Below are positions 25,725 to 47,315 of a stretch of 64,000 nt of DNA, piece after piece; position 1 is the first letter of the stretch; every line of letters begins with the position of its first letter. The notes beneath the pieces were generated by a model. The model ran no database searches, had not been told where the DNA came from, and saw nothing but the letters and a program-made list of their open reading frames with translations. The position numbers and the translations under genes are program-made. The stretch covers positions 355,948 through 419,947 of the forward strand of contig JBBCGE010000003.1 in assembly GCA_037200545.1 (NCBI GenBank), read 5' to 3'. The DNA comes from Limisphaerales bacterium. Its GTDB lineage: Bacteria > Verrucomicrobiota > Verrucomicrobiia > Limisphaerales > UBA11358.

Positions 25725-25783
25725 CATAGAGCTAGGTCATACAGTTCCCGCCAACCGCACCTTGCTGACATCGCACTTCTGAA

Positions 25784-27258
25784 TTATGGCCCGCCATTGT
25801 GGCATTCGTTGCAGGTGGGATTCGCGTCGAGTTCTCCGCCGGGATGGATGAATTTCTGGCGGCCGTCGCGAGCGTTTCCAATTCTGATCCGGCACCTTGC
25901 GCGAGGATGGTGTGGCAGGTGTTGCAATCATTGGCCTTGATGGTCACCTTGCGATCTTCCGTCTTGTGCTGGTCATCGTGACAACGGAAGCAGCCGGGCC
26001 AGATCATGTGGCCGACATTGTCGGGATACGAACTCCAGTTGGCCTTCATCTCGGGGAAGAAATTTTCCGCATAGATCTCCTGGATGGCCGCGGTGGATTC
26101 TTTGATATGCGCTTCATTCGGATACTTGGCAAGGAGCTTGGCGGCGATGGCGTCTTTCGCCTCCTCTTCGGTCGGGTAAGGCAACGTCAGGACATACATG
26201 GCATTGGTCTTGATCCACGGGATGGCCGGGTCAATTTTTCCGAGCGCCATCGCCTGGTTCACCGCCTTTTCCGGCGAGAGATAACGATGGGACGGACGGT
26301 TGTGGCAATCCATGCAATCCATTTTGCGGATCTCCATTTTGCTGACGTCATTCGTAAAATTCTTGGTCTTAAAAACCGTGACCTTGCCTTGCGCATCGGT
26401 CACGCGCACCCAGGGAATTTTCTGGCGGGCATTGTCGGTGGCGATGTATTCAACATTGTTGCCGGGCAAGTTGTGCCAGTGGATGCCGCCGACTGGCCCG
26501 TGCGCCGGATCGCTCCCGCCGATCTTGAGGAGCAAGCGGATGGAGTAGGGCGAGTTCGACGCATCGCTTTGAAAATATTGAAGGTGCGGTCGAGGTTCCC
26601 GACAAACTGCTGCGGCCAGTGGCATTCCTCGCAGGTGTCACGTGAGGGACGTAAATTTTTAATGGGTGTGGCGATGGTGTGGGATATTTCTTGAAGGCAA
26701 CCGAATAAAGCTGATACGAGCCGGAGATTTTCGACTTCACAAACCAGGAAACACCCTTGCCGACATGACATTCCACGCAGGCCACGCGCGCATGAGGTCC
26801 GTGATCATGAGTGACTTTCTCCGGTTTCATCACCGTGTGGCAGACTTCGCCACAAAAGACCGGCGACTCGGTGAAATTAAAGGCGTGGATAGGAGCCGGC
26901 GGCGGTCAGCAGCATGAAAACGATGCCTGCCGGCAATAAATACCACCAGCGTCCGCCGCTCGCGTGGGTTGTTCAGATCAATCTGCAAAGAAGTTGCCCC
27001 GCCACCTTTCGAACGGCGCCGGCGTTCCCGCCACGCGCCAAAAACAGTTAATAGAATTCCGCCGATCAAAAATGCCGGCACGCCCATGTAAGTGAGGATG
27101 CTGACGTAGGGATTGGAAAATTTTGCGAGGGCATCCAGAATGAAGAGCAGTAAAAAGGAAAAGAGCGCGCCACGCGCCACAACCATGCCGATGAAACTGA
27201 TCCAGTTTCTAAAAGCGGAAGTGTGGTTGCCGGTCAACGGCTTGTTTTCTGGATTCAT
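25784..27258 (-). pseudogene. membrane-anchored multihaem c-type cytochrome (7 CXXCH), about 4 frameshifts as sequenced
   Basis: N-terminal TM helices (ORF 26830-27258). Haem motifs are recovered across frames: CGEVCH, CVECH, CEECH, CMDCH, CFRCH, CNTCH, CNECH. One verified shift lies at the GG of 26887-26888. Reconstructed stop at 25784-25786. Confidence 0.75.
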
Positions 27259-27456: not shown

Positions 27457-27804
27457 TTAGTTTGCTGCCGAGTTTTTTATTTTTTTCAAAGTGCGGACAT
27501 AGGCCACCAGCGCCTTGATGTCATCGTCGGACAACTGTTCAAACGGTTTCATCAGGGTTTTTTCACCGGACTTGAGACCTTCCTTGATGGATTTAAAGGC
27601 GGCGTCATCCGTCAAGTCCGCCTGCACCTTGGCGTCGCTGAAATCTTTGCAGCCAATTTTTGCGCCAATCTTGGTGTCGCCCTTGCCCTCCGCGCCGTGG
27701 CACTTGGCGCAAAGCGTGGTCCAGTTTTCCTTGGCGTCGGCGCCCTTTACGGTGAATGCGGCGGCAAGGCCAAACATCGCCGCCAGCAGGATTATTTTTT
27801 TCAT
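27457..27804 (-). CDS. monohaem class I c-type cytochrome, secreted
   Basis: Signal peptide MKKIILLAAMFGLAAAFTVKGADA, a single CAKCH motif, and a distal Met (LMKPF). Confidence 0.8.
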   Translation of the reverse strand: MKKIILLAAMFGLAAAFTVKGADAKENWTTLCAKCHGAEGKGDTKIGAKIGCKDFSDAKVQADLTDDAAFKSIKEGLKSGEKTLMKPFEQLSDDDIKALVAYVRTLKKIKNSAAN

Positions 27805-28134: not shown

Positions 28135-29211
28135 ATGAAAATCTTCGTCGCCGGCCTCAGCTACAAAACAACACCTGTCGAAGTGCGTGAAAAACTCGCC
28201 GTGCATCGCTCCCGGCTGCAATGCAGCGGCTGCCGGCTGAAACTGCGCAGCAATCTTTCCGAACTGGTGCTGCTTTCAACATGCAATCGCGTCGAGATTT
28301 ACGGCGTGTCGCCATGGATTCACGGAACAGTCCAGCAATTGTTCAAGGAATTGACGAATACGGATATTGATTTCACACACTATCTTTATGTCAAAGAAGG
28401 GGCGGCGGCGGCGCAGCATTTATTTTCCGTGGCGGGCGGGCTGGACTCGATGGTGATCGGCGAAACGGAAATCACCGGCCAGGTTAAAAGCGCTTATGAG
28501 ACCGCCAGGGCGGCGGGATTGACCGGCAAAAAAATGAACCGGCTTTTTCAGACGGCCTGCAAGGTGGTGAAAAAAATCCGCACTGAAACGGGCATCGGGC
28601 GCGGCGCCACCTCGGTCGGCAGCGTGGCGGTGGAACTGGCGGAAAAGATTTTCGACCGCGACCTGTCGCAGAAGACCGTGATGATTCTGGGCGCGGGCAA
28701 GATGGGCGAGGCCTGTGTGAAACATCTCACCAAGCGGGGCGCAAAGACAGTGCTGGTTTCCAACCGTTCGTTCGAACGCGCCGAAAAACTTGCGACAGAA
28801 TTCGGCGGACGCGCGGTGCGGTTTGAGAATTCCGCTGCGGCCATGATCGAAGCGGATATTTTGGTCAGTTCCACCGGGAGCCAGGGCATGGTTTTGAGCC
28901 GGGAGGATGTGGCGAAGATTCTGCCCGCGCGTCGGAACCGGCCGCTGGTGCTGGTGGACATCGCGGTGCCCCGGGACATTGATCCTTCGGTGGCGGAACT
29001 CCCCAACGTTTTTCTCTACGACATTGACGACCTGGAATCCGTCGTCCGCGAGAATACCCGAAACCGCACGTTGGAACTCGCCTTTTGCCATCGGATCATC
29101 GCGGAATACTCTGCGGAATTAATGGCCAGATTGAATCCGCCTTTGACGCATCCCGACCGTGAAACCGTGGAAGTTGTGTCGGGTTGGATGCTCGCTGGAG
29201 CAACCGCGTGA
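28135..29211 (+). CDS. hemA: glutamyl-tRNA reductase
   Basis: MKIFVAGLSYKTTPVEVREKLAV, the active-site motif LSTCNRVEIYG, GETEI(T)GQVK, and the NADPH-binding ILGAGKMGE. At 358 aa it is somewhat short at the C-terminus. Confidence 0.9.
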   Translation: MKIFVAGLSYKTTPVEVREKLAVHRSRLQCSGCRLKLRSNLSELVLLSTCNRVEIYGVSPWIHGTVQQLFKELTNTDIDFTHYLYVKEGAAAAQHLFSVAGGLDSMVIGETEITGQVKSAYETARAAGLTGKKMNRLFQTACKVVKKIRTETGIGRGATSVGSVAVELAEKIFDRDLSQKTVMILGAGKMGEACVKHLTKRGAKTVLVSNRSFERAEKLATEFGGRAVRFENSAAAMIEADILVSSTGSQGMVLSREDVAKILPARRNRPLVLVDIAVPRDIDPSVAELPNVFLYDIDDLESVVRENTRNRTLELAFCHRIIAEYSAELMARLNPPLTHPDRETVEVVSGWMLAGATA

Positions 29212-31652
29212 TGAAGAATCTAAGACCGAAAATCAGCAACGATATAACAAATATGAAAGAACTAAATCCATGTTGGAAAACCACCGCCTGTCTCGTGGTG
29301 GCTGGTTTGACTCTGCTCGGCGGCATGTCCGCCGTCCAGGCCCAGGCCTTGAACGGTTTCCTGACGGTTCGGCCGTTGACGCCAACGGAGATAAAAACTT
29401 ACTCTTTGACCGGAGTTCAAGGAGCAAGCGGCCTGAACACGGTCGGCGTCGGCCAGCCGGCTTATCTGGAGGCATTGGTCGGTGCGTCCGTCGCTCCTGC
29501 CAACATCGTCAGCGTTACTTGGACAATCACCAGCAAGCCCATCGGGTCGGCGGCGGTGCTGCTTCCCACTCCGCTGGGAACGAACATTCTAACTTACAAA
29601 ACGGCCGACCGTATCTCCCAGACCGGCACCGCTTACGCCCGGGTGGCCTGGCCGGGCGGAGTGAACACGGGCAATGCCACGAACAATGGCCGGACGTTCC
29701 TGCGGCCGGATGTCACCGGACAATACATCGTCACGGCCACCATCGTCACCGTTGGCAGCGGCACGACCAATTTGACGCAGAGAATCACCGCCGGCACTTA
29801 TGTGGGCGTCGCCACCTGCGCGCTTTGCCATAGCGGCAGCATTGGTGCCGAGGATATTTATCATCCGTGGTCGCAGACAGCGCACGCCACGCTCTTCACG
29901 CTGGGAATTGATGGATTAGGAAATCCCCACTACAGCAAGAACTTCCTCCCCTATACCACAGTTGGTTACGATACCAACCTCAGTTCATTCAACGGTGGAT
30001 TCGACGACTTGGCCACTGACGCAGGCTGGGTTTTTCCGGCGGTTCTGACCAATGGCAACTGGGCGAGCATGTTGACGAATTATTCGCAGTTGGCCGGCTT
30101 GGCGAACGTCCAGTGCGAAAGCTGCCACGGTCCCGGCAGCGAACACGCTTATTCCCTCGGCAATACCAACGTTGCCAACTGGCCGCGGCTTGCCGTCACG
30201 TATGTCGCGGCCGATTGCGCCCAATGCCATGACAATTCACCCAATAATACCAAGAGCACCGAATGGAACGTTTCCCTCCATTCCCACCCGACCCGCACAC
30301 CTTCCGGCGGAGCCAATCGTGCGCAATGCGTCCGCTGTCACACGGCGGCCGGCTTTAGCAGTTGGGCGGAAGCCGGCGGCATGGCGGCGGTGAATGCCAA
30401 TCCTTATGCCATCATTCCTGCCAACCCCATCACCACTTACGAGGCGATCACCTGCCAGACCTGCCATGATCCGCATGACGCTACCAAACCGCACCAGTTG
30501 CGCCTGGGCAATACCATTACGCTCTCTGACGGCACGGCGGTCACGAATGCCGGCAGCGGCGCGTTCTGCATGCAATGCCACAATAGTCGCGGCGGTTCCG
30601 TCACCAATCTGATGGTAAAATATCCTTTGAACCAGCCCAACTGGGCCGGTGGTGTCGGCTTTGGCCCGCATGACAGTCCGCAGGCGGACATGCTCGAAGG
30701 CGTGAACGCCGTGACCTACGGCAAGGTGATTCCCAGCGCGGCCCACGCCAACGTCGTTTCCAACACGTGCGTCGGCTGTCACATGCAGACGGTAGCTTCC
30801 ACCAGTCCGGCCTTCCTCAAGGCGGGCGGCCATACGTTCAACATGGAATATAATATCACCAACAACGGCGTGGTCACCGCCGTTCCGCTCACGGCGGTCT
30901 GTGCCCAGTGCCACGGTAACAAGGCCAACGCCACCTTCGACTTCCCCGTGCAGGATTACAACGGCGACGGCATGATCGAAGGCGTCCAGACCGAGGTCCA
31001 TCATCTGCTCGACAAATTGTCCACCTTCCTGCCGCCTGCCAGTTACAAGGCGAATGCGAACAACTATGTCGCGGACGGCCTCATCAAGACCTCCATCACC
31101 ACTTATACCAACATGCCGGCGAAGTTCCTGAATGCCGCCTACAACTGGCAGTTTGTCGAAACGGACGGGAGCTTTGGCATTCACAATGCACCTTACGCGG
31201 TCGGCCTGCTCAAATCATCCATCGCTGATTTGACCGGCGACGCCAACAACGACGGCATAGCCGATGCGTGGCAGAACAGTTACTTCGGTTCCTACACGAA
31301 CGTGCTGGCCGCGCCCAACGCCAGCCCGGCGGGCGATGGCATCCCGAACTGGCTCAAATATTCCCTCGGACTCAACCCCATGGTGGCCGGAATCGTCCTG
31401 CCCAATGGCGTGGTCTGGGTGAACACCAGCAGCATCGGTGGCGAGACGAACACCGTTCACATCTACACGGCGGCAGAAATCGCGTTCGATACGCAGGTCG
31501 GCACCAGCTACCAGATCCAGTCCATCTCCAACCTGGGCGGTGGTTGGTCGAACGTGGGCCCTGCCATCGCCGGCACCGGAACGACCATCAGTTACCTGAC
31601 CCCGACCCGCAGCGGTGCACAGCAGTTCTTCCGCGTGGTTCACACTCCGTAA
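29211..31652 (+). CDS. secreted octahaem c-type cytochrome with a C-terminal non-haem domain
   Basis: The ATG at 29211 overlaps the hemA stop (TGATG). It has a signal peptide and 8 CXXCH motifs (CALCH, CESCH, CAQCH, CVRCH, CQTCH, CMQCH, CVGCH, CAQCH). A Ca-binding-like DANNDGIADAWQ follows, then a beta-rich tail. The gene is intact. Confidence 0.8.
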   Translation: MKNLRPKISNDITNMKELNPCWKTTACLVVAGLTLLGGMSAVQAQALNGFLTVRPLTPTEIKTYSLTGVQGASGLNTVGVGQPAYLEALVGASVAPANIVSVTWTITSKPIGSAAVLLPTPLGTNILTYKTADRISQTGTAYARVAWPGGVNTGNATNNGRTFLRPDVTGQYIVTATIVTVGSGTTNLTQRITAGTYVGVATCALCHSGSIGAEDIYHPWSQTAHATLFTLGIDGLGNPHYSKNFLPYTTVGYDTNLSSFNGGFDDLATDAGWVFPAVLTNGNWASMLTNYSQLAGLANVQCESCHGPGSEHAYSLGNTNVANWPRLAVTYVAADCAQCHDNSPNNTKSTEWNVSLHSHPTRTPSGGANRAQCVRCHTAAGFSSWAEAGGMAAVNANPYAIIPANPITTYEAITCQTCHDPHDATKPHQLRLGNTITLSDGTAVTNAGSGAFCMQCHNSRGGSVTNLMVKYPLNQPNWAGGVGFGPHDSPQADMLEGVNAVTYGKVIPSAAHANVVSNTCVGCHMQTVASTSPAFLKAGGHTFNMEYNITNNGVVTAVPLTAVCAQCHGNKANATFDFPVQDYNGDGMIEGVQTEVHHLLDKLSTFLPPASYKANANNYVADGLIKTSITTYTNMPAKFLNAAYNWQFVETDGSFGIHNAPYAVGLLKSSIADLTGDANNDGIADAWQNSYFGSYTNVLAAPNASPAGDGIPNWLKYSLGLNPMVAGIVLPNGVVWVNTSSIGGETNTVHIYTAAEIAFDTQVGTSYQIQSISNLGGGWSNVGPAIAGTGTTISYLTPTRSGAQQFFRVVHTP

Positions 31653-31874: not shown

Positions 31875-34800
31875 TCAAAGCGTTACGGTGGCGGCTTTTA
31901 CGGCTTGATAATTCTTGTCCAGTTCCGGCTGGAGCAGAATCAAGGCGGCGATGCGGCGGGCCATGTGCGTGACTTCACGCGCCTCGTCCGGCGTGAGCGC
32001 GCGACCGAGCAAATCAAATTCCCGGTAGCTCAACCACTTCTTGATGACCTGATAACCGCCGATGGTGTAGTCCCAGACCGGTGCGGGAATGTCTTTCCAG
32101 CAGGCGGACTCGTTCAGATAAACATCGTGAAACTCGAACCACGGCAGTTTGTAATCCGGCCCGACATCCAAAATTGCTGTGACGAGTTTGCCTTGGCCGG
32201 GCATTATCGCGCCTTTTCTGTTGGCGTAACCCCAGCCAGCGGTCAGGGAAAGATTCAAAGCATCCTTTGTCACCCGTGTAACTACTGCAATCTTCATCAA
32301 ATCTGGACGAACCTTTCCGACAGTGACGCCATCAACACCATTTTCCGTATCGAGTAGAGCGGAAACTTGTTTACCCAATTCGGTGGATGCGAGCAAAGCG
32401 GCTTTGGAAGCGGGCAAGGGAATTCGCGGCCAATCTTGTCGGATGCCGTCGGCATGATCAGCGAGATAGGCTGGCGAATAGCCGATGGCAAGCGCGTGCA
32501 TCCAAATCAGTCCTGCGGTGTCCGCGTCATCTGGATTCGTGATGCCAAGTTTAGCGAGATAGGCGCGGGTAGCAGGTGAAAGATTAGCGGTAGTTTTCTC
32601 CCCGCCTGCTGTGTAAGCGGGAGCAGCATTCTCGGAGAATGCTACCCAACTCGCCGTTGCCATCATCCTTCTTTGGTTTTTCCTTTGATGATTCCCGAAG
32701 GCGCAGAGGAATTGCAACGGCATGACCGCGCATAGAGTCACGTGCCAGTAAGTTTTTTGTAAAGATGAACGGCACTCCTTCGGGTTCGGCGACACCAGTC
32801 GTGCGACTTAACAAGAATGCGTTTCCTGGCCAGCTTTGCTTCCACAGATCGGGACGCGAGCGCTTCCATACATTTGGCACAGGCGTGTAGTAGCACCAAC
32901 GAACATCACAGGGACGAAAAAGGTAGCGTCGAAGGTTTTTGGTTGTAAAAGCATCTTTGTCTTGTGCAATTTTCCTGATTTTTTCGGGCTTGAAAGCTGC
33001 GCTCTTTCGAGAGAGTCCGGTCTTTAGTGATGCAAACTCCTCCCACTCGACGAGTTCGTCGAAATACTTTTCCATGCGAGAAGCCAATGCACTTTTTCCG
33101 ATCTCAATCAGGCTATTTGCCCGATCTTCATCCATGCCTTGCAACGGTTGGCTTTCACAAAGTTCATTGAGTTTCGGCCATGATAAATACGCTGTTGCTA
33201 CATTCTGCGGACAGAATGTGAAACGGTTGATGTATTCTGGTGCAACTTGCTCATACTGCTTGGGGAAATTCTTTGTTTGGAGACTTGCAAGAATCTCCGC
33301 GCGCTTGTTTGCACCCCAGAATTGTCTGAAGAAAACATTTGGCTTCTTACTGCGCTTGGGCTGCCGAACCATCAACCCGATGGCCGTGCCCACCTTGATG
33401 CCTTCGCGATTGTAATCCGTAGAGAAAACTGACGGGTCGGGTTTTCCTTCCGGCGTAAGTTTTCCGGTTTCACGGCTATCACCGTTTAAGCAATCAAACC
33501 AAAGTGAATCGAACTCTTGCACGAATCGTTGGCGCATTTCGACAAATGATTGCTCGCTTAAATATGAAAAGTTTGAAATATAACAAACGATACCTTTGCC
33601 AGATTTTTCCGCAATGCGTCGCTCGGCAATCCGAAAGAAGCGAACATAAAGCTCATCCAAATTAAATTTTTTTATTCCCCAACCACCTTTATTAACAGGG
33701 TCGGCCAATTTGTAATGGCGTTTCATTACTGGCTGTCCGTCTTCGTCAAATAAATCTTCCCCATCTTTATTTTTCCTCTGTGTCCAATAAACACCTTTAT
33801 AGGCTTCAACCAGACCTTGCTCTTCTTTTGGGCTGATACCTGCAAAAGCGTTATAAGGTGGGTTTCCAAGGATAACAAGAATGGGTTTCTCTTGTTTGAC
33901 CTTGCCCGCACCCCTGCGTTCTATTTCCAATTCCGGCCAGTTTGCGAGATGTGGATTGGCTTTATCCTCATCCCAACCGGTTAGGGCGTTGGTCAGGAAA
34001 ATTCCAGCGCGTTCACCTTTAGTATCATCTAACGGCACAGACAGGTTTTGTAGGAGCAGACCCATTTGCAGATGCGCCACAACAAATGGTGCGGGCAAGA
34101 TTTCAAAGCCGAAGACACGTTTCTGCGCGGCCTCTTTAAGTTCGGCGTTGACCAAAGCATCTTCACCTTTTTCTTCTGTGAGTGTTTTAGAAACTTTTCG
34201 CAACACCTCGACGAGATACGCGCCCGTGCCGCAGCAGGGGTCGAGCACGAACACGCGCGGGTCGGCGAGGCCGTCGGGAATGTCCAGTTCCTCGCGCAAG
34301 GCGGCGTCCACGCGGGCGACCTGATATTGCACAATCTCCGGCGGCGTATACCACACGCCCAGTTGCTTGCGGAGTTCGGGATCGAAAGCTTCAAGGAACG
34401 GTTCGTAGAAATACTGGACGGCGTGGTCTTCCACAAACCGCTCAAAGAAGGCGGCGCGATCCACGCGGTTGAGCGCGGCGGCGGTCCAGTCGAGAACTTC
34501 CACCAATCCGAGCGGGCCAAGTTTCGTCGGCGTGGCGACCTGCTCGAACAAGGCTTTGATCATCGGAACGTGCAACGTCCACGCGGCGGACTTCCAATTG
34601 AAATCATTTTTGCGCTGCGGCTTTTCCTTGTGCCAGAGCACCCACGCGGAAAACACGCCGTAGAAAAGTGTCTGGACGAGCGTGGAACGGAAAAAGTGTT
34701 CGCCCTTCTCCGCCTCAAACTTCATGCCGAGTGCTTCTTCCAACGCACCCCGGACGGCGGCGAGTGCCGGAAGATTGCCCGCACCTTCCACCCGCGCCCG

Positions 34801-35388
34801 CGCATCGCGCGCATACGAGGCGAGAAAGAAAGCCACGTCTTTGGGATTGTTCAGTGGCGCGGCGTGGAGCATCACGCGCTTGAGGTATTCGATGAAACGT
34901 TCGCCGAGTTCGCTGGCGGCCTTGCGCGGCTGGGCGGCGACGATCCAGAAAGATTTTTCGTCGGGTGCGAGTTGAAACGATTCGAGCCGGATGGGTTTGC
35001 CGTTATCACCACGCTTCAGAAGCAGAAAGCTGCAGTAGTTCGTCAGCAAAACCAGGCCGTAATGTTTGAGGTAATCGTTGACCTGTTCCGTTTCGGAGAT
35101 GTCATCAATGTCATCGCGGGTGGATTTGACTTCGATGACACCGCGCGCGGGCTTCTGGTCAATGAAGGATTCTTCCTCGTTCCGGTTTTTCAACTGGTCG
35201 GGCGTGAACAATCCGCCATCAGGAATGCCGGCGCCGCTGTTCTTGGGATGGATGATGCAGCGGACTTTGGGTTTGAGCGTGTGGCCGACGGCGTTCAGAA
35301 GATTGGCGAGCGCCGGATAACCGGAGGTTTCCTTGGTCGCCCCGCGCAACGTGGCGATTTCCGCGAGATAGGTTTCCAGTGGGTGCAT
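31875..35388 (-). CDS. single-polypeptide type IIG / type ISP-like restriction-modification enzyme (N6-adenine methyltransferase with an N-terminal PD-(D/E)XK-like motif and a Type-ISP C-terminal domain); one frameshift as sequenced
   Basis: N-terminus GIPDGGLF...RGVIEVKS (D...EXK). Methylase motifs VLDPCCGTGAY (motif I) and ILGNPPYN (motif IV, NPPY). The C-terminus WDYTIGGYQVIKKWLSYRE is typical of Type-ISP C domains. ORFs 32584-35388 and 31875-32795 overlap and join near 32640-32690. Confidence 0.8.
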
Positions 35389-35472
35389 TGCCAGTGACGT
35401 GCAGAGCTTAGGGCGGTTGCTGGCGATTGGAAAGCCGGAGTTTTAGACTGGCGGCCATTCCGCACCGGAAGA

Positions 35473-36377
35473 TTATTTTATCTCGTTGGTGGCGCTGGCT
35501 TTTATCTGCTCCAGCGCGTTGATCTGGGAGCGGAGTTTGGCGGCGATCTCCTTGAGCTTTTCCGACTGCGCGGACTGCACCTGCTGGAAATGTTTCATGG
35601 CCGCCTGCTGGTCGGTCCAGGAGCCGCTGGCCTGCGCATTGGCCAGACGTTGCCGGGCTTCCTCGACCTGCGTCTCCATCTCCACCGCCGCCGTCTGGTA
35701 ATCGCCCAACGCACCGACGCTGAGAAGCTGGCTGCCTTCAGCCACGGAAAGGGTCGCCAGATCGGGTAACGCTTTCTTGACCGCTTCGATGGTCACGGCA
35801 TCAGGCGCAGGTGCGGCGGGAAACGCCCGAGGAACTTTGCGCCGGGCCGGCTGATTTCAGCCGGGCGATGGCGCGGCTCAGATCCGCTTCCAACGCCGGT
35901 TCCCATTCGGCGGAAAGTTGGGGGAATGATTCCTTCCGTCCGTTGGAGATTAAAGTGATGCCAAAATAACAGGCGTCGCCCTTGTCGAGATTGAAGGCCG
36001 GAGTCCGTCGGCGGAAGCGGCATTGGCATCGGCCGCAGTCTTGAATTGTGTCACGGAAATCTTCCCTTCGCCGTCACGTTGATATTCCGCTAGCAATTGG
36101 TTGATGCGGTCGGCAAAAGCAAACGTATCGGCGGGCACGCTGTTTTGATCGAGCACGGAGTAGAATGAATTTCCACCGGGGAGCTGAGATTTTTTTAGAA
36201 TCGTCCGGTACCGCCGGATAATTCACGGTTGCCGTCGGTGCCTGGATTCTTCAACATGCCATGGCGGGCGTACCAAAAAAGTCCCGCCACCAGGCCGATG
36301 CACGTCAGGCACACGATTAAAATTTTAACTCCGGCACCGGCTTTTTCAGTGATCCGCGCAGGCGATGATTTGCTCAT
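35473..36377 (-). pseudogene. membrane-anchored hypothetical protein with a C-terminal coiled coil, several frameshifts
   Basis: N-terminal TM VKILIVCLTCIGLVAGLFWY (ORF 36195-36434). Middle fragment NSVPADTFAFADRINQLLAEYQRDGEGKISVTQFK (35950-36156). Intact-looking C-terminal ORF 35473-35796 is Ala/Gln-rich coiled coil. Joining them is my inference. Confidence 0.35.
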
Positions 36378-36667
36378 AGGAAAAACCGTGGATGGTTTGT
36401 TGGTCTGGATTTCCAGCGTCGCAGATCCCGGCATTACACGCGAGAAAAAAACCTGTTTTTAGTCCGCCGCCGGCCCGGAAAAGCAGGTGGTTCAAATTGA
36501 CGGATGACAAAAAAAGGCTGGCGTTAGGCAAGATAAGGAAAGCCTCCATATGCCGCTCCTGTAAGATTTCGTTCACGCCTAAAGGCACCAATGTTCAGAT
36601 GGCAAACCAATGGTTGGCCGTTGCAACTGCTGCACTCAGGAATGCCCGGTCGCCGTTGTTGTCCCAA

Positions 36668-38362
36668 ATGAAGAGAAAAACTCAACTGGTAAACAAAACG
36701 CTCGTCGTGTTCTGGACGTTGTTGAGCATCGTTCTCTGCGACTTTTCCACTCAAGGGCAGGGGGTTCAACACCTGTTGGAACCTCAGCCCGGCGGCTGGC
36801 CCGGTTTGCCGGTCATGAACGGCATCCTGAAAGTCACCAACGGCGTGAGTTTGATGTGGACGGGCCCCTCGGGATATTATCAACTGCAAAAAAAATCTTC
36901 GCTGACCGGCTCCTCATGGCAGAACGTCGGCGCTCGGACGTTGAACTGGCAGGCCACCGTGGCGGTGGTTCCGGGCAATGCTTTTTTCCGAGTGTCCGGG
37001 CCGTCGCCGCACTTCATTGGTTCGCAAGCCTGCACCGAATGTCACGGCAACATTCAATCCACGGTGTTGAGGACGGTCCATGCTACCGCGTTCACGGACG
37101 CTGATTTTGTTTCCGCCGGCGGTCAAAACAATCCTTCCTGTCTTTCCTGTCACACGGTGGCTACAAGCTGCCGACCGGATTTGTCAGCAAGTCCCTGACG
37201 CCGAAACTGGCAAACGTGCAGTGCGAAAACTGCCACGGTCCGGCCGCCTATCATGCCCGCCAATCCGGATGATTTCACGGTCGTGCCGCGGTATTGAGAT
37301 TGCCGCCACGCTTTGCGGCGGTTGTCACCCAAGGTCCCATGCAGCCCACTTTCGAAGAATGGAAATCGAGCGGACATTCTGCCATCCCGGCGGCCGTGCT
37401 GAATTCCATGGCTTTCCTCCCCCGCCAATTTAACCGGTTGCGGCCGGTGTCATTCGGGTTCGGTCCGGCTGGCGTTGCTTAACGGACAAAATCCCAGCAC
37501 GGTTGCCAATGATTACAATGTCCCCATCACCTGCGTCGTCTGCCATGATCCGCACCAGACCACGGCGTATCCGGCGCAAGTGCGCAATCCGCTGTCCTCA
37601 ACGAATTATTATTCGCTCACCACGTCCGCGAATTTTGCCACCGCGTACAACCCGAAAATTAACATCTGCGCCCAGTGCCATAACAGCCGCGGAGCCGCGT
37701 GGACGGACACCTCGCGGGGCGCCGCATCATTCGCAGCAGTATAATTTTCTGCTGGGTTCCATCGGCGAACTGCCGGAAGGCTCGGCCACGTTCAATCCCG
37801 GTTCGCACGCCGGGTTGCCGGCTTCCGCCCAGTATTCTCTTTCCGGCACGTTTTACCTGACCAATCAGTGTGTTTCCTGTCACATGCAAAAGGATGCCGC
37901 ACCGGCCAACACTCAGAGCCATGCATTTGCATTCGGCAACTACGCCGCCTGTCTGAACTGTCATCCTACCAACCCGGAAAAGCTGGTGTCGATGTCATGG
38001 TGCCGGCGGTTTCCAACCGGGTTTACAACTTGAAATTTTGCGCTGATTATGGGCCGTCAACAACGCGAACCCCGCGTTGCGTACGAAACGGAGCGGTTGC
38101 CTGGGAATATACGACACCGGGCGGTTTGATCTGGCAGACCAACCAGCTGGAGGAATCACCGGCTGGACGCAGGTGGAATCGGTAAATTTTGGCGGGCCGA
38201 ATACGGCGGCGCAGGTCTTGATTCCGAATGATATCAAACGGGCCCGCTTCAATTTATACTTGGTGCTCAACGACGGCGAGTTTCGGCACCCACAATCCAT
38301 TTTTTGCGCTGGACCTTTTGGACACGGCTGAAGAGTGGGTGCTTGATGAAATTGACAATTAA
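36668..38362 (+). pseudogene. secreted multihaem c-type cytochrome (about 9 CXXCH), paralogue of 29211-31652, many frameshifts as sequenced
   Basis: Signal-like MKRKTQLVNKTLVVFWTLLSIVLC. Motifs across frames: CTECH, CLSCH, CENCH, CGGCH, CGRCH, CVVCH, CAQCH, CVSCH, CLNCH. Blocks are co-linear with the intact paralogue, e.g. VQCENCHGPAAYHA vs VQCESCHGPGSEHA and ITCVVCHDPH vs ITCQTCHDPH. Confidence 0.7.
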
Positions 38363-38366
38363 CAAC

Positions 38367-39231
38367 ATGACAAGGTTTTCATTCATCTGGAATTTTCTGC
38401 CATCCAGCAAAAAAGGGCGCGCCCTGATGGCTGTGGCCGGCCTGAATCATGCTGGTGCTGGCAGCCATCTCCTGCAGCACGGTCAACAATCAGGCAGTCG
38501 CGTTACCGGACGTTTCCCGGAGCGAAATACATCGGCTCCTCGGAATGCGAGCAATGTCCATGATGAAATTTACAAAGACTTCAAGGACTGCGGATCACGC
38601 GCGGCTCATGACCGAAGGTCCCAACGCCAAAGACGTGGGCTGTGAATCCTGCCATGGGCCCGCCAGTCTTCATGCGGACTCTGGTGGCGAAGTCAAAACG
38701 CCCTATGCTTTCACTCCGGACGTCCGTTGCCCGCCGGCCTGGCCGGAACCACGCCCGGCATGTCGCCGGCCCGTTCAAAAGAAACCGTTTGCTACCAATG
38801 TCATGCCGATGTGCGCGGGCAATTTGAACTTCCCAATCATCATCCTGTCCCGGAAGGCCGGATGGATTGCACTATTTGTCATTCGCCGCACAAGGGAAGC
38901 ATCCACGCCGGTGGCGGCACGCCTTGATGTCGCAAAACGATAATTGCATCAAATGCCATCCGGCTCAACGCGGGGCCTTACGTGTTTTGAACACGAAGCG
39001 TTGCGCGAAGGTTGTACTTCCTGTCATACCGCCCACGGCAGTGTAAATGCAAAATTGCTCACCGTGCGGGATTCAAACTCTGCCTCAAGTGTCATTTTCA
39101 CAGATAAGAAACGGCGCCATCCTCATAGGTGGTTCGGATCACACCATCCGTTTGCAGCAGGCACTTGCTGGACGGCTGGCTGCCATGAAGCGGTTCACGG
39201 TTCGCGCGTCAACCCGTCGCTTAGATTTTAG
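38367..39231 (+). pseudogene. small periplasmic multihaem cytochrome (about 8 haem sites, MtrA/DmsE/OmaB-like), several frameshifts as sequenced
   Basis: Motifs across frames: CEQCH (restored by removing one C at 38558-38559), CESCH, CYQCH, CTICH, CIKCH, CTSCH, CLKCH, and the terminal GTCWTAGCHEAVHGS. Haem sites are packed closely, about one per 35 aa. Confidence 0.7.
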
Positions 39232-39247
39232 GTCGTCGAGGAAAACC

Positions 39248-41388
39248 ATGAAAAGGAAACATCCGACAAAAAGGCGAAAGGACCTGGCCTCGCGGCGGGC
39301 ATGGTATCGTCATTGCATACCTCGTCGTCGCGGCGTTTTTGTCCTGGAGCCACGCGGCGCACGCCGCCGGCACCAATGCTCCTGCACCGGTTCTGACGCC
39401 GGAGCAATGGTTCGAGGGTGGCACCAATACTTACAATAACTGGGTTGATCTTTCCGTGGGTGGCCTGATTTTGGATGGCAGCACCGCGCAAGGGCAACAG
39501 CAATATCAGTTGCAAAAAAAATCCCTTCGGTGGCGTCAGCGATCTGCACTTCCAGCAGGATGTCGCCAAGGAAAACCACGCTGACCCTGGACGGCCACGC
39601 GCTGTTCGATCAAAACGACTACAAGATGACGTTCCGTTTGCAACGCGAGGATTTCGGATACATCAAAGTCAACGTCACCGACTTTCGCACCTGGTATAAC
39701 GGTGCGGGCGGTTTTTTCCCGCCCACCGGGATTCAATACCAGCTTCCCAATGATGATTTGTATCTGGATCGCGGCGAATTTTCCATTGAGGCGGGACTCA
39801 CGCCCAAGGATCTGCCGCAAATGTTTTCAAATATGACCACAGCTACCGGGACGGGGCAAAAGAGTTCCACCATCTGGGGGCCGGTGCATCCTGATGCAAC
39901 ATCGGCAGTGCGGGGTGTATATCCATCCATTTATGACATCAACGAAAAGGTGGACAGCTACTCGTTGGATTTGACCCATAACATCAAGAGCACGGATTTG
40001 GGGTGTCGGCGTGCGTTACGAAACCGCCAGCCTGGCTGACAACCGGCAGGAGACATTCTGGCAGGGCGAACCGGGACAACGGAATGTTACGGACAATCAG
40101 GGGACTTCCTATGACATGTTTAACGCCCATGCCTTCACCGAGACCTGGTTTAAGAATGGCATTTTGTTTTCCACCGGCTACATGTTTGCCAATATAAATG
40201 AAACCTTCACCCGGCAGTCGCAATTACGGGGACGATTTCAATGTGGTGTACACCTCGAATCCGTTGAACGGTCTGGGCTATGCCAATCTCAATGGCGGTG
40301 CGCAGGAGCAGGAACACGTGGCGAACCTGAACTTGATGGCGACGCCCGTAAAATACCTGACCATCGTGCCGTCGCTGCGGGTGCAATCAGACACGTGGAA
40401 TGCGAATTCCGCCGGCATCGGGACGCAGGGCACTTTCACCAGCCCCTACACCAGCACCAGTGACGGGGAGACGTTGGATGTGCGGGAGTGTCTGGATATC
40501 CGTTATACCGGCGTAACCAATTGGGTTTATTATGCCAGTGCCGAACTGACCGAAGGCACGGCAATCTCAATCAGTATGGCGGGCTGTCCTCAAGTCAACG
40601 GGATCGGTGTGCCGCCCGTTCTGGAACTCACCGATCAAACCCGCTGGTTGCAGAAATATTCTCTCGCGCGCGCTGGTATCCTGTCCGCCGCACCACGATT
40701 GACTTTGGGGGCTATTACAAGAACAACCAATACAACTACAACAATCCTACTGACAGCACTTACAATGGCGAGGACAGCCCCAATCGTTATCCTGCCTATC
40801 TGGTCATGGAGAGTTTTCAAACCTACGATGGCAATGTGCGCCTGACTTTCCGGCCCGTCGCAACGTCACTCTGGTCAGCCGTTATGAATATCAGCATTCA
40901 ATCATCAACACGACTCCCGATGCGATTTCAGGGCTGGGCGATGCCCAGTCGTCCACCATGAACAGCAGATCATCGCCCAGAACGTGACGTGGACGCCCAT
41001 TTCCCGGCTCTGTTTCCAAGGCGGTTTCAATTATGTCTTAAGCACGACGCAGACGCCCACGTCCGCCTACACCCAGGCCATCCTCAATTCCCAGAACAAC
41101 TACTGGACCATCACCTTGAACTCGATGCTGGTGTTAGATGACAAGACCGATTTCAACGTGGATTTCTTTATTATCATGCGGGTGATTTCAACGACAATGC
41201 CGCTTACGGCGTGCCGCTCGGTGCCGGTGCGGAGGAATACACCGTGACTGCGGTCATCACCCGCGTATCACCCAAAATTTGCGGGTCAATCTCAAATACG
41301 CTTATACCCAATACAACGACTGGGCTTCGGCGGCAACAACAACTACGATGCCCAATTGGTTTATACCACGCTTCAATACCGGTTTTAG
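39248..41388 (+). pseudogene. putative outer-membrane beta-barrel protein (candidate porin partner of the adjacent cytochromes), many frameshifts as sequenced
   Basis: Signal-like segment IVIAYLVVAAFLSWSHAAHAAG. There are long stretches of alternating-polarity, Tyr/Asn/Thr/Gly-rich sequence. The reconstructed C-terminus ...NLKYAYTQYNDW...LVYTTLQYRF ends in an aromatic residue, as OMPs do. Confidence 0.5.
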
Positions 41389-41569
41389 ATGAATTCTCCC
41401 GAAGGCAGGGCGGCAGGTTGATTCAAAAAAAATTGGTCTGCGGGGGCCGTTTATCAACTACATTGGGTCCAGGTTATGACACCGTTCACACATCTCTCTC
41501 CAACCTGGAAAACAAACGCCACACGATTGCCCGGTTAAAAATTTCCAATGAAAAACGCTGAGTATAGAT

Positions 41570-42909
41570 TTGGATCTGGTAAAAAAATATAACGTGGCCG
41601 GGCCGCGTTACACCAGCTATCCGCCGGCGACCAAGTTCAGCGAAGCTGTGACATGGGAGCAGCTTTCTGAGAAGATCGAAGATAATAATCTCAGTCCTCG
41701 CGATCTTTCGGTTTATTTTCACATTCCATTCTGCGAGTCGCTCTGCTGGTTCTGCGGCTGCACCACGGTCATCACCACCAACCACGATAAAGGCAATGAT
41801 TACGTTGCCTATCTTGGCCGCGAGGTTGCCAAGCTCGCGCCGCGATTGAACAAAGATCGCAAAGCCGTCCAACTTCATTTTGGTGGCGGCTCGCCCACGT
41901 TTTTGCGCCCCGATGAAATCCGCCGACTCGGTGAAATCATCCACAAACACTTTACGTTTTCACCGGATATTGAAGCGAGTGTCGAGGTGGACCCGCGCCG
42001 GCTGACACGCGAACACCTGGTCGCCTTGCGGGAGATCGGCTTCAACCGCGCCTCGATGGGCGTGCAGGATTTTAATCCGCAAGTGCAGGAGGCGATCCAT
42101 CGCATCCAGCCGCGCGCGATGACGCAGCAGGCGATTGACTGGATGCGCGAACTCGGCTTTGGCTCCATCAACCTTGATTTGATCTACGGTCTACCTTCAA
42201 CGAAACCCTCGACACCGGTGCGAGATGAAGCCCGACCGGCTCGCCGTGTTCAGCTACGCGCATGTGCCCGTGGATCAAGCCCCGCGCAAAAAATCCTCGA
42301 GGAAAAATCCTGCCGACGCGGAAAGCAAACTCGAGGTGCTGAAGCTCGTCATCGAACGGCTCACGGCCGGATGACCAGTATGTTTACATCGGCATGGATC
42401 ATTTTGCGAAACCGACGGACGAACTCACCATCGCGCAGCGCGGGAAAAAAATTGCAGCGGAATTTCCCAGGGCTACAGCACGCGCGCCGGCTCGGATATT
42501 TATTCGTTCGGCATGAGTGCGATTTCACAGACCCCCCGACGCCTACTGGCAGAACGAAAAGGAGCTGCCGAAATACCAGACGGCGGTGGACGCGGAAAAA
42601 GTGCCACTGCACAAGGCGTATTTCATGACCGGCGAAGACAAGATCCGCCGCGAAACCATCATGCGCGCGATGTGCGACCTCTCACTCGACTTCGCGGCGA
42701 TGAGCGCAAAACTCGACATCAACTTTGAGGAACATTTTGAAACGGAACTTGCCGCGCTCGCGCCTTTCATCGCCGATGGACTGGTGAAAAAAACTCCTGC
42801 CGGACTCGAGATCACGAATTCCGGCCGCCTCTTCATCCGCAACATCGCCATGTGTTTTGACAACACGCTCGGCGCGGCTAATGAGCGCAGACACTCCAAG
42901 ACGATTTAA
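41570..42909 (+). pseudogene. hemN: oxygen-independent coproporphyrinogen III oxidase (radical SAM HemN), at least 3 frameshifts as sequenced
   Basis: N-terminus LVKKYNVAGPRYTSYPPATKF, radical SAM motif IPFCESLCWFCGC, GGGSPT. The C-terminal ORF 42517-42909 (YWQNEKELPKYQTAVD...GRLFIRNIAMCFD) is the HemN C-domain. The middle part is only recovered by switching frames. Confidence 0.85.
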
Positions 42910-43191
42910 TTTTTCGCGGATTCAAAGAAGCGAACCCATCAAACTTCATCGAAAAGCGGCGACCACTTCTGCGATGTAAAATGATGTTCCACCTCCCGGC
43001 GAATCTGGGGTGATAATAATCGAATTAACCTAATTGTCTCCTGTTTCGCTGATCCAAAGCGTGCATCCAGGATTTTCACAGACATCTGCAAACCGGCCAA
43101 GCTTCTTTCTTAATCCGTTGAATTTCGGAAAGGATTCGTTTTTGTTTTGCTTCATGTAAGGCAGAAATTTCCGACATGATTTTTGATTCTT

Positions 43192-43674
43192 CTACGAGAG
43201 CGTTATCCTGTTTCTCTTCTTCTCAAATAGCGGTTTTGGTTTAGCTCCTTTGCAAGCTTTCAAATGACCGGAAAGATGCTGCTTTTCAACTGAACAATTA
43301 CATTTGGGACAAGTCTCCATTGTTTTTGAACTTTGTGACGGACAACGGGATTTTTTGTGGTTCGATTGGTAGGACGAACACGTTGGAGCGTTCTAGGGCA
43401 GCGCTCCTTGTGTTCTTCACGCTCGTCTTCATAAAAAAGATCCGTTACAGCATGGACATTTGGTCTTCAGCTCCGTTTCTCTGCGAATACGATAAGTGGA
43501 TGCCCATTCCTCAAATTCAACATCAGCAGGAGTGAGGATTGTTATTTGGAAATCGCCCATTTTGACGTGTTTAATCAAGCCATCCTCACTCGAAAGAACC
43601 ACAAGTTCGCCAAGTAATTCGCTGAAATCTAGGTCGGGGGTGCCGCGAGCAAAAGCAATGTTCCATCGAGACAT
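43192..43674 (-). pseudogene. hypothetical protein with two C2HC-type zinc-finger-like motifs, frameshifted
   Basis: ORF 43429-43674 ends at ..KCPCCNGSF. Removing one base from the A6/T6 run (~43434-43439) continues it as YEDEREEHKERC. A second motif, CPKCNCSVEKQHLSGHLKAC, follows in another frame. The region is AT-rich. Confidence 0.3.
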
Positions 43675-43767
43675 CCGATTTGTAGTTTCGGCCTTGCGGC
43701 GAACCGAGGCACGATATTTTATTTACCAAAGCAAGATTTGGAGACACGAAGCTACTCTGGCTATTTG

Positions 43768-44072
43768 TCAGTGAGGCGATGCACGCGTAGGAATCACGAT
43801 GAGCAGCTCATCGAAGCAACCGTGTTTTGGCCACGGCCAACCAAGCGGCGGATTAAACCCACACAGAGCCGCCGTTTATGTCGGATAAAATAAACTTCCT
43901 TCCTACATTTAGGACAACATGTCGGATGACAAACATCTTTGAATCGTTCACTGAAAGAGTAGGTGCGTGAGCTAAATCCTGTCCCGCCATAATTTCCACC
44001 GCCCGATCCGATATGGCCGTCACCACCGAATCCGCATGTGCAACAGGGAGAATGATTATTTGCGTTACACAT
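43768..44072 (-). pseudogene. small Gly/Cys-rich zinc-ribbon protein, frameshifted
   Basis: MCNANNHSPCCTCGFGGDGHIGSGGGNYGG..., then CPKCRKEVYFIRH. After frame changes this continues as NGGSVWVNPPLGWPWPKHGCFD. Confidence 0.3.
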
Positions 44073-44219
44073 TGTAATTTCCGTGTTTCATCCGTGTTCA
44101 ATCTGTGACTAAATAATTTCGTTCGCAAATAAATTATTATTCACGAAATCCATCGCAATCATCATTTGCTGGCGATTGCCGCAATTGCCAAACGCCCGGA
44201 TTGGCGGTATAAACACAGC

Positions 44220-44437
44220 ATGAGCGCGCACGACCCTCATCACGATTGACCCGGACATTCTCGGCGGCACGCCGGTGTTCAAAGGGGACGCGCGTGCCCA
44301 TCAAGTCGCTGTTCGAGTATCTGGAGGACGACTATTCGTTGGAGGAATTTCTGGAATGTTTCCCGTCCGTGACACGCGCGCTGGCGTGCCGGGTGTTGGA
44401 ACAGTCAGAAGCGGCGCTCCTTGAGCCGTCCGCATGA
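44220..44437 (+). pseudogene. DUF433-family putative antitoxin, frameshifted
   Basis: ITIDPDILGGTPVFKG|TRVPIKSLFEYLEDDYSLEEFLECFPSVTRA is recovered by removing one G from the GGGG run at 44284-44287. Pairing with the DUF5615 gene downstream is the classic arrangement. Confidence 0.6.
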
Positions 44438-44758
44438 AAATCCTGCTGGACGAGTGTGTGCCATGGCCGATGCACCGGCTGCTCGCCGGCCATGAATTGT
44501 CGCACCGCTCAACAGTGTGGCTGGGGCGGGATCCAAAAAACGGTGATTTGCTGCGACTCGCGGAAAAGGAATTCACCCTGTTCATCACGTCCAGATCAAA
44601 ACTTACGCTACCAGCAAAATCTAGGCAGGTAGGCAAATTGCCATCCTTGAGCTTTCCACGAATAAATTGCGCCGTATCGTGGCGGCGACGGATGCTTTGA
44701 TGGCATCGGTGGAAGCGATCAAAAGCCCGGTGAGTTTCGGCATCTGGCAATTCCATGA
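44434..44758 (+). pseudogene. DUF5615-family (PIN-like) putative toxin, frameshifted
   Basis: MKILLDECVPWPMHRLLAGHE... and GDLLRLAEKEFTLFITS. The start overlaps the DUF433 stop (ATGA at 44434-44437). The reconstructed end overlaps the hemY start (ATGA at 44755-44758). Confidence 0.55.
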
Positions 44759-46164: not shown

Positions 46165-46165
46165 G

Positions 46166-47195
46166 ATGAGCAAAGCAATTCTCCTGGTCAATCTCGGGTC
46201 GCCGGACTCGCCGTCTGTGCCGGATGTGCGCCGTTATCTCAACGAGTTTTTAATGGATGGCCGGGTCATTGACGCACCATGGCTGGTGCGACGGTTTGTC
46301 GTCGGGATGATTTTGATCAACCGCCCCGAAAAGAGTCGGGCCATGCCTATGAAAAAGTCTGGGACCAAGGAAGGCTCCGCCACTTGGTCGTCACCAGCCG
46401 TCATGTGCAGGAGCTTTTGCAAAGGCGGGTTCGCGTGCCGGTGGAAACTGGCGATGCGTTATCAAAATCCGTCCATTAAATCCGCCGTAAAAAAACTGGC
46501 GGCGGGCGGCGCGACGGAGGTTTTGCTCATCCCGCTCTTTCCGCATTATGCGATGTCCAGCTACGAAACCGCCGTCGTGCGCGTGCAGGAAGTTGTCACC
46601 CAACTTGCGCCGCAGATGAAACTGGTCGTGCAGCCGCCTTATTACGACCAGCCGGACTATATCGCGGCGCTGGTGGCGAGCGCGCCGAATATTTTAAGGA
46701 GGACTACGATCATTTGCTGTTCAGCTTTCATGGCAATCCCGGAGCGGCACATCAAGAAATCGGACACGACGGGTTGTCATTGCCTGGCCACGCCCAATTG
46801 CTGCGAGACGCCCAGCCCGGCGCACGCGCAATGTTACCGGGCGCAGTGCTACCGGACGGCGGCGTATGTTCATTGAAAAGGCCGGCGTGCCGGCGGGGAA
46901 ATGGTCGGTGTCATTTCAATCACGGCTGGGAAAAGATCCGTGGCTGAAACCCTACACAGATTTCGAACTGCCGCGCTTAGCGACGGAAGGCAAAAAACGA
47001 ATGTTGGTGATTTGCCCGGCCTTTGTATCAGACTGTCTTGAGACGATGAAGAAATTGGGATGCGCGGCTGTGAAGAATTCATGTCCGGTAATGGCCAAGA
47101 GTTCACAACGGATTCCCTGTATGAACGAGCATCCGGCCTGGATTGGCGTCTTGGAAAAAAATGGCTGCACGATTCACGGAGCCCCACCCGGTTAG
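46166..47195 (+). pseudogene. hemH: ferrochelatase, several frameshifts as sequenced
   Basis: MSKAILLVNLGSPDSPSVPDVRRYLNEFLMD, LLIPLFPHYAMSSYET, HLLFSFHG(I)PERH, SFQSRLGKDPWLKPYT, LVICPAFVSDCLET. The 3' end is uncertain. One frame stops at 47193-47195, 3 nt before the att repeat. Confidence 0.8.
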
Positions 47196-47198
47196 AAA

Positions 47199-47217
47199 TG
47201 GAGCCAATGGCCGGGAT
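47199..47217. repeat. att direct repeat, distal copy (duplicate of the tRNA-Thr 3' end)
   Basis: Identical 19-mer to 53727-53745. It is the reverse complement of ATCCCGGCCATTGGCTCCA (T-arm 3' half, acceptor 3' strand, discriminator and CCA). Confidence 0.9.
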
Positions 47218-47315
47218 GGCTGTTATTCTAGCGATTGCGAAGACAATATGCCTGATTTTATTAGTGAATCAACCCTAATCATTGTAACCGATTCATACTC
47301 TTTTCAACTCGTTTA

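Follow-up and report, generated by a model that had tools for sequence, protein, structure and literature searches.

Does a verrucomicrobial locus that looks broken as sequenced nevertheless encode an outer-membrane electron conduit? The locus lies at positions 36668-41388 of the stretch of Limisphaerales DNA analysed here (the window, 64,000 nucleotides), where three tightly packed genes for two multihaem cytochromes and a large barrel follow one another on the plus strand and no reading frame stays open long as sequenced. We consider it likely that this triad is an Mtr-like conduit that carries respiratory electrons out of the cell; nearly all of its frameshifts in the window are sequencing errors. 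An initial annotation, made from the sequence, had proposed three consecutive same-strand genes at this place, and all three are present on the plus strand with gaps of 4 nucleotides (nt) between the large and small cytochromes and 16 nt between the small cytochrome and the barrel. A promoter and terminator scan of the locus was uninformative. The genes, with lengths in amino acids (aa) after correction, are as follows.

36668..38362, plus strand: large secreted nonahaem cytochrome, 560 aa (nine CXXCH motifs; alignment to the orthologue in related locus L002)
38367..39231, plus strand: small octahaem MtrA-like cytochrome, 287 aa, predicted lipoprotein (haem motifs; open reading frame in contig L084; match to MtrA)
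39248..41388, plus strand: predicted outer-membrane barrel, 713 aa, with 26 modelled strands, no plug and a C-terminal YRF beta-signal (alignment, AlphaFold2 (AF2) model, Foldseek)

Frameshifts and the integrity of the genes

Gene models were built by frameshift-aware dynamic-programming alignment against intact homologues. The three genes had been called heavily frameshifted as sequenced, and the alignment indeed needs 37 single-base shifts (11 in the large cytochrome, 11 in the small cytochrome and 15 in the barrel), with no in-frame stop in any of the corrected genes. Amino-acid identity to the L002 orthologues is 75.5% for the large cytochrome, 84% for the small cytochrome and 81% for the barrel, and differences from homologues fall mostly at third codon positions (in the barrel, 265 vs. 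98 and 60). A scan of genome contigs found nothing closer than ~79% nucleotide identity, so the frameshift question was not settled by that scan; contig L083, at 79%, merely suggested indels of homopolymer type.

An independent contig of the same strain shows what the window frameshifts are. A 545-aa protein that shares 99% identity with the large cytochrome emerged from protein searches and led to L084, a 3134-bp contig in the Logan assembly of run SRR28211700. Aligned to window positions 36191-39329, L084 differs by 0 substitutions and 29 one-base gaps, many of which lengthen or shorten short single-base runs, and 22 of the 23 frameshifts predicted for the overlap lie at these gaps and vanish in L084. 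There, the small cytochrome is an uninterrupted 287-aa open reading frame, and the large cytochrome lacks 10 of its 11 window shifts and keeps one. Because L084 restores the small cytochrome and all but one shift of the large one, the window frameshifts are single-base consensus errors of the assembly and not gene decay, except possibly one, instead of making function uncertain as the initial annotation had supposed. The organism itself has an intact small cytochrome gene and a large cytochrome gene with one real frameshift at most. L084 reaches only the first ~80 nt of the barrel gene, the integrity of which we infer from its homologues.

Similar errors affect other parts of the window in patches. 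Genes are split across frames and long open reading frames are missing at ~22400-27300 and ~35400-49000, where genes for ResB, HemN, a DUF7088 protein and a NapC-type cytochrome (listed below) are broken by indels in the same manner. Outside the patches lie intact genes of 2.5-3.2 kb (4136-7300, 12716-15547, 29184-31652 and 32584-35388). This patchiness suggests uneven polishing or coverage in the source assembly.

These observations bear directly on the alternative that the triad is a decaying pseudogene cluster and its frameshifts are real mutations. The sheer density of shifts (37 in 4.7 kb) and the one large-cytochrome frameshift found in both assemblies would fit decay. However, the comparison with L084 yields indels with no substitutions and restores the frames, the third-position bias is typical of purifying selection, in-frame stops are absent, and housekeeping-type neighbors are equally broken while genes outside the patches are whole. 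We give this alternative very little credence; genuine pseudogenisation is essentially excluded by L084, the absent stops and the third-position bias. That the region resembles a set of pseudogenes is an artefact of assembly.

The shared shift is a −1 frameshift at ~37985 (37980-37990), just past the ninth haem motif of the large cytochrome. Both assemblies read TCGATGTC there, with TCGGAT read as TCGAT, while P0391, the intact homologue nearest to this protein, reads LVSDVMVP (codons of the TCG GAT GTC type). The shift may be genuine or may be a systematic error common to both assemblies. If it is real, the last 121 aa of the large cytochrome are split off in this strain.

The barrel and its two cytochromes

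The third gene encodes a protein whose modelled fold resembles MtrB. It had been described as a Tyr/Asn/Gly-rich protein of ~710 aa ending in LQYRF, as outer-membrane barrels do; the corrected protein has 713 aa, with Thr, Gly, Asn and Tyr at 9.7, 8.3, 8.1 and 7.0%, and the barrel assignment is borne out by a 26-strand model with MtrB as its best match in the PDB. Searches with the corrected barrel find 662 relatives, the best of which are full length (710-717 aa) and up to 77% identical. All of these best relatives are labelled ‘hypothetical’, and those that carry a name come from Verrucomicrobiota metagenome-assembled genomes (MAGs). An exhaustive profile search returned 1182 clusters at 50% identity. 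The C-terminal YRF, a typical outer-membrane beta-signal, is kept in 110/120 homologues. In the moderate-confidence AF2 model of homologue P0001 (36-sequence alignment; mean predicted local distance difference test score, pLDDT, 73.6), residues 63-710 form 26 long antiparallel strands and a plug domain is absent. The top Foldseek match of this model in the PDB is MtrB (6r2q_B; E 2e-13; template modelling (TM) score 0.58/0.62), and the next are 22-strand TonB-dependent transporters at TM ~0.36-0.43. Identity as a TonB-dependent receptor or ordinary porin was rejected, given the 26 strands, the missing plug and TM ~0.4 to TonB-dependent barrels.

The likeness to MtrB is confined to the fold. Pfam and NCBIfam models, including MtrB_PioB (TIGR03509/PF11854), gave no informative match to the corrected barrel, P0001 or eight distant relatives, and a search of PDB sequences with the barrel family profile had no match up to E 10. 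As a positive control we used L085, a Photobacterium replicon with canonical mtrC-mtrA-mtrB and the sole MtrA relative from the plasmid collection; its proteins score 392 (OmcA/MtrC), 322 (DmsE/MtrA) and 551 bits (MtrB/PioB). Profile comparison of the barrel with the L085 MtrB (hhalign) gave a nonsignificant probability of 5.5%. An N-terminal CXXC is a feature of MtrB in metal reducers; the control MtrB has one (CSDC), and the corrected barrel has none. We therefore describe the barrel as MtrB-like by predicted fold and, by the sequence criteria applied, not of the MtrB/PioB family. Because one 854-aa relative (P0370) fuses an N-terminal Planctomycete-type monohaem cytochrome c domain (PSCyt1) to the barrel, the family is tied to electron transfer independently of gene order. 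A Limisphaera porin with an N-terminal haem motif recalls this arrangement (PMC13608581). We presume that the barrel is a sheath for the small cytochrome.

The small cytochrome was expected to have ~285 aa and ~8 haem sites. It has 287 aa, with seven CXXCH motifs and a terminal CWTAGCH (CX4CH) at 39166, a set kept in 119/120 homologues. A scan of CXXCH positions across all three frames, which were then stitched by eye, gave seven CXXCH between 38641 and 39081, spread over frames as sequenced; the first motif of the protein, CEQC/H, is split by the frameshift at 38558. At the end of the signal peptide, 103/111 full-length homologues have a lipobox-like LLLA[AV]ISC, and because of this conservation we predict that the small cytochrome is lipid-anchored. 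To our knowledge, MtrA does not carry a lipid anchor.

Despite this difference, the alignments identify the small cytochrome as a true homologue of MtrA, and we presume that it runs as a wire through the barrel. The PDB chain that it matches best is MtrA (6r2q_A, E 1.5e-20), residues 136-280 aligning with MtrA 178-324. The last six haem motifs align one to one with the last six of MtrA, while the first two pair more weakly with N-terminal motifs. The MtrA/DmsE likeness noted in the initial annotation thus stands as homology but not as family membership: the score of 142.7 bits against the DmsE/MtrA model TIGR03508 is below the cut-off of 192.2, that against the GSU2203-family model NF041028 (159) is below 325, and there are eight haem sites, not the ten of MtrA/DmsE. 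An NrfB-type identity is ruled out (Pfam NrfB-like, E 0.05, vs. E 1.5e-20 for MtrA). The PDB table lists 6r2q_A as ‘Cystathionine beta-synthase’; the chain sequence has MtrA multihaem motifs, so we treat the label as an error and not as a biological lead.

The large cytochrome has the approximately nine CXXCH motifs previously suggested. Nine were counted (at 37031, 37139, 37222, 37314, 37439, 37532, 37667, 37869 and 37950), and nine are kept in 112/120 homologues; given this conservation and that of the small-cytochrome set, the haem motifs of neither protein are a matter of chance. A Sec signal is followed by a conserved beta-rich (beta-sandwich) domain of ~80 aa, the nine-haem core and C-terminal helices. 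Modelled by AF2 without haems, the protein reaches a pLDDT of 44, and only the N-terminal beta-sandwich and the C-terminal helices are modelled with any confidence. The family profile (A2) matches OcwA of Thermincola potens (6i5b_A) at E 4.3e-19 in six collinear segments, spanning profile positions 115-562 and chain positions 13-496 and including the C-terminal DGSxGxHN helix region. Next come the surface cytochrome 6qvm (2.9e-16) and then cytochrome c554 (8e-10). The large cytochrome does not match the OmcA/MtrC model TIGR03507, has nine haems and not ten, and its homologues share no conserved lipobox Cys; an MtrC-type identity is ruled out on these three counts. By profile comparison, we assign the large cytochrome to an OcwA/c554/NrfA type, not to OmcA/MtrC, and presume that it is a cell-surface terminal reductase. 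OcwA has been shown experimentally to be a nonahaem cell-surface terminal reductase with c554-like and NrfA-like modules (PMC6703420). By the curated models, then, none of the three proteins belongs to the Mtr families.

Gene order and the surrounding island

The order large cytochrome, small cytochrome, barrel is conserved. A scan with the barrel alignment found 176 relatives among GTDB species genomes, of which the best 80 loci were examined. The triad is syntenic in ~80 Verrucomicrobiota genomes; the order is kept in every related locus with enough upstream DNA, and the three genes are never separated in ~70 loci. The resemblance that the initial annotation saw to Mtr and Pcc gene orders holds for the former, with mtrC-mtrA-mtrB arranged in the same way in L085, but not for Geobacter Pcc, in which the porin comes first. 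The best 80 loci are nearly all labelled Verrucomicrobiota, Verrucomicrobiae, Limisphaerales or Pedosphaera, with peat, soil and lakes as their sources. Further carriers found by cluster look-up are Pedosphaera sp. Tous-C6FEB and, in culture, Opitutales bacterium ASA1 / Congregicoccus parvus.

Some contigs with the triad (e.g., L003, L005, L023, L044 and L048) are labelled Bifidobacteriaceae, Limnocylindrales, Acidiferrales and similar. Mislabelling or misbinning of MAG contigs is a more likely cause than horizontal transfer, because these contigs combine 50-79% identity to Verrucomicrobiota loci with identical synteny.

Such constancy also bears on whether the two cytochromes could form a periplasmic NrfA/NrfB- or MccA-like reductase of nitrite, hydroxylamine or sulfite, with the barrel merely an adjacent uptake porin. 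The c554/NrfA/OcwA lineage of the large cytochrome, its possession of only a Sec signal, and the reduction of nitrite and hydroxylamine by OcwA in vitro (PMC6703420) are all compatible with such an enzyme. Yet the motif scan found no CXXCK catalytic motif, the small cytochrome fits MtrA and not NrfB, and the 26-strand plug-less barrel is unlike the 22-strand TonB-dependent transporters, which rank below MtrB among its structural matches. With the three genes never apart as well, we judge a periplasmic reductase quite improbable and favor a conduit.

The triad sits beside further genes for electron transfer and for haem and cytochrome c maturation. The features of the wider region are as follows.

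20421-22415, minus strand: System II cytochrome c maturation protein, CcsA-like, intact (TIGR03144, PF01578)
22577-23823, minus strand: System II cytochrome c maturation protein, ResB/CcsB-like, frameshifted (PF05140)
23816-24960, minus strand: predicted lipoprotein (signal ends LSSGC), frameshifted, between ResB and the NapC-type cytochrome
25735..27258, minus strand: NapC/NirT/NrfH-type multihaem cytochrome with two predicted N-terminal transmembrane helices, frameshifted (stitched minus-strand frames)
27457..27804, minus strand: monohaem class-I cytochrome c, 115 aa (Pfam Cytochrom_C, Cytochrome_CBB3)
28135..29211, plus strand: HemA glutamyl-tRNA reductase, first step of haem synthesis (TIGR01035, 369 bits)
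29184..31652, plus strand: second large multihaem cytochrome, 822-aa open reading frame, 8 CXXCH, intact (paralogue comparison)
32584-35388, minus strand: 934-aa N6-adenine methylase / type ISP/IIG-like restriction-modification protein, with 31875-32795 (minus strand)
35473..36377, minus strand: DUF7088 membrane-anchored coiled-coil protein, indel-broken (tblastn with L002 and L001 orthologues; Pfam PF23357)
41570..42909, plus strand: HemN-type oxygen-independent coproporphyrinogen oxidase, frameshifted (Radical_SAM and HemN_C on the stitched protein)
49811-52009, minus strand: 732-aa HNH_4-domain protein, in a lower-G+C region
52495-53562, minus strand: tyrosine integrase, in a lower-G+C region
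53727-53801, minus strand: tRNA-Thr, directly adjoining the tyrosine integrase

Many of these neighbors recur beside the triad in related loci. The NapC-type cytochrome partially matches Pfam Cytochrom_NNT and NCBIfam NrfH, has orthologues no more than 8 kb downstream of the barrel gene in 15 related loci, and is a candidate inner-membrane menaquinol dehydrogenase feeding the conduit. The monohaem cytochrome c, a possible periplasmic shuttle, is found downstream of the barrel in 22 related loci and CcsA orthologues in 12, while the HemA gene precedes the triad in 24. The DUF7088 protein combines a membrane helix at its N-terminus with a coiled coil at its C-terminus; it is divergently oriented upstream of the triad in most related loci and may be a functional partner of the conduit, either a regulator or an assembly factor. 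HemN stands beside the triad in this genome only and in none of the related loci.

The 822-aa cytochrome is a paralogue with its own conserved place. It has 27-28% identity to large-cytochrome orthologues, an extra C-terminal domain and a weak match to OcwA (E 3.7e-7), and 39 related loci have an orthologue of it upstream of the triad. In L002 (470-2899), this orthologue is called as two genes (545-1531 and 1589-2902) where tblastn gives one 825-column match; the split is possibly an error or a real frameshift in that contig.

Other parts of the region look foreign to the island or lack a family assignment. The methylase stretch, between the 822-aa cytochrome and the DUF7088 protein, has lower G+C (0.49 at 32-34 kb) and has no counterpart in any of 84 related loci; it was probably inserted into the cytochrome island recently. 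The frameshifted lipoprotein at 23816-24960 contains two internal copies of a ~150-aa domain with GG.LANVNRWRGQ.GL and has no Pfam or NCBIfam match. Farther away, 49811-53801 probably represents a mobile element that has integrated here, with its far end in the error-rich stretch at 43-49 kb.

Proposed electron flow and relation to known conduits

The best-supported reading of the triad is an electron conduit, on the combined evidence of the 26-strand plug-less barrel model, MtrA homology, OcwA collinearity, synteny, the P0370 fusion and the conserved island. In the mechanism that we propose, electrons from the menaquinol pool would pass to the inner-membrane NapC/NirT-type multihaem cytochrome encoded nearby and would then cross the periplasm. 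The next carrier would be the eight-haem MtrA-like lipoprotein, lodged in the 26-strand plug-less barrel, as fold, homology and strict synteny suggest, and electrons would leave via the OcwA-type nine-haem cytochrome, presumably located at the cell surface. The likely acceptors would be insoluble or macromolecular, for example Fe(III) oxides or humic or particulate organic matter.

Several points weigh against this reading. The barrel has no detectable sequence kinship to MtrB/PioB (hhalign 5.5%, no hidden Markov model match), and its fold match reaches only TM ~0.6, with a model whose mean pLDDT is 73.6. For the large cytochrome, a Sec signal is present without a lipobox, no export route was identified, and the frameshift at ~37985 in both assemblies could truncate it. 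Sequence fixes neither the direction of electron flow nor the acceptor, and conduits of this kind appear to be known so far from computational description.

The same complex could instead carry electrons inward, drawing them from Fe(II) or reduced humics outside the cell or from a partner cell and delivering them to the periplasm, as has been proposed for MtoAB and PioAB. In principle, porin-cytochrome conduits can run either way, the MtrAB homologues MtoAB and PioAB serve in Fe(II) oxidation (PMC6344600), and the conserved neighboring monohaem class-I cytochrome c is a typical partner of oxidases. On the other hand, PioAB and MtoAB typically lack an extracellular cytochrome (PMC6344600), whereas an OcwA-type cytochrome is always present here. 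The host resembles a saccharolytic heterotroph, the triad is linked to a NapC/NirT-type quinol dehydrogenase, the adjacent hemN is oxygen-independent, and Limisphaera reduce ferrihydrite (PMC13608581). We consider inward flow unlikely and retain an outward conduit as the preferred reading.

The triad shares parts with several characterized systems and is identical to none of them. Like Shewanella MtrCAB (6R2Q), it has the order surface cytochrome, periplasmic cytochrome, barrel, a predicted 26-strand barrel and MtrA homology. It differs in each component: a barrel with no sequence similarity to MtrB and without the N-terminal CXXC; a small cytochrome with 8 haems and not 10, a lipobox and a score below the TIGR03508 cut-off; and a nine-haem OcwA-type surface cytochrome in place of an OmcA/MtrC decahaem lipoprotein. 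OcwA (6I5B) and the related 6QVM share the nine CXXCH, and the profile is collinear along the whole protein, but OcwA has a Gram-positive host and no barrel partner, whereas the cytochrome here has an extra N-terminal beta-sandwich of ~80 aa and belongs to a diderm porin-cytochrome operon. Geobacter Pcc (OmbB-OmaB-OmcB) is similar by description, in that a single operon encodes a periplasmic cytochrome with eight haems, a porin-like protein and an outer cytochrome; besides its porin-first order, it differs in that the outer cytochrome is a dodecahaem lipoprotein. The one family model related to Pcc that was applied here, NF041028, scored 159, below its cut-off of 325. MtoAB and PioAB also pair an MtrA-like cytochrome with a large barrel, but they have no surface cytochrome, fall within the MtrA and MtrB families on sequence grounds and have Fe(II) oxidation as their assigned role.

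The closest resemblance by description is to clusters already reported from the same phylum. He et al. 2017 (PMC5615132) described ‘novel porin-MHC’ (multihaem cytochrome) clusters in freshwater Verrucomicrobia, with homologues in Opitutus and other Verrucomicrobia. In these clusters, a porin with 20 or more strands stands next to a periplasmic cytochrome that has eight haem sites, an extracellular cytochrome is sometimes also present, and the authors proposed electron transfer to humic substances (see also PMC6344600). A 2026 preprint (bioRxiv 10.64898/2026.05.27.727921) distinguishes two conserved Verrucomicrobiota architectures for extracellular electron transfer (EET), EET3 in Palsa-1439 and EET4 in Limisphaerales, gives AlphaFold3 multimer models with MtrA-like and OcwA-like cytochromes of 8-13 haems, and reports in situ transcription of EET clusters in deep peat. 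Cultured Limisphaera respire ferrihydrite and ferric citrate and carry porin-associated cytochrome loci, according to another 2026 paper (PMC13608581).

The locus fits the published cluster descriptions in every feature checked, and this kind of system is already known. As in the verrucomicrobial porin-MHC clusters, a porin of at least 20 strands stands beside an eight-haem periplasmic cytochrome and an extracellular multihaem cytochrome in the same phylum (here 26 modelled strands, 8 haem sites, an adjacent large cytochrome and Verrucomicrobiota relatives). The Pedosphaera, Limisphaerales and Opitutales members of the barrel family belong to lineages named in the 2017 and 2026 papers. We infer family identity with the published clusters from description and taxonomy, not from a sequence match. 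The initial annotation had held that such a conduit would be notable in a PVC-like organism; with verrucomicrobial porin-multihaem clusters published in 2017 and 2026, it is not especially so. Neither the lipobox of the small cytochrome, nor the island with NapC-type, CcsBA and HemA genes, nor a quantified lack of MtrB sequence signal in the barrel appears in the portions of the 2017 and 2026 accounts that we consulted.

A bolder interpretation is that the conduit is a chimera independent of Mtr, in which a convergent 26-strand barrel with no detectable sequence kinship to MtrB would combine with a shortened, lipid-tethered eight-haem wire derived from MtrA and an OcwA-type reductase, within a conserved island of ~20 kb with its own quinol dehydrogenase and haem and cytochrome maturation genes. 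We offer this tentatively and regard it as doubtful. In other settings, terminal reductases of OcwA type are known from the surfaces of Gram-positive cells. Should its OcwA-like head have retained catalytic haems, the complex could reduce not only minerals and humics but also soluble oxyanions at the cell surface.

As the idea of such conduits in Verrucomicrobiota is already in the literature, the locus is mainly one more carrier. Three of its details may be useful for testing that idea, namely the lipobox on the MtrA-like wire, the missing sequence link between barrel and MtrB, and the linkage to NapC-type, CcsBA and HemA genes. If the conduit is functional, abundant polysaccharide-degrading Verrucomicrobiota of soil, peat and lakes could respire insoluble iron or humic matter, and carbon flow would be diverted away from methanogenesis.

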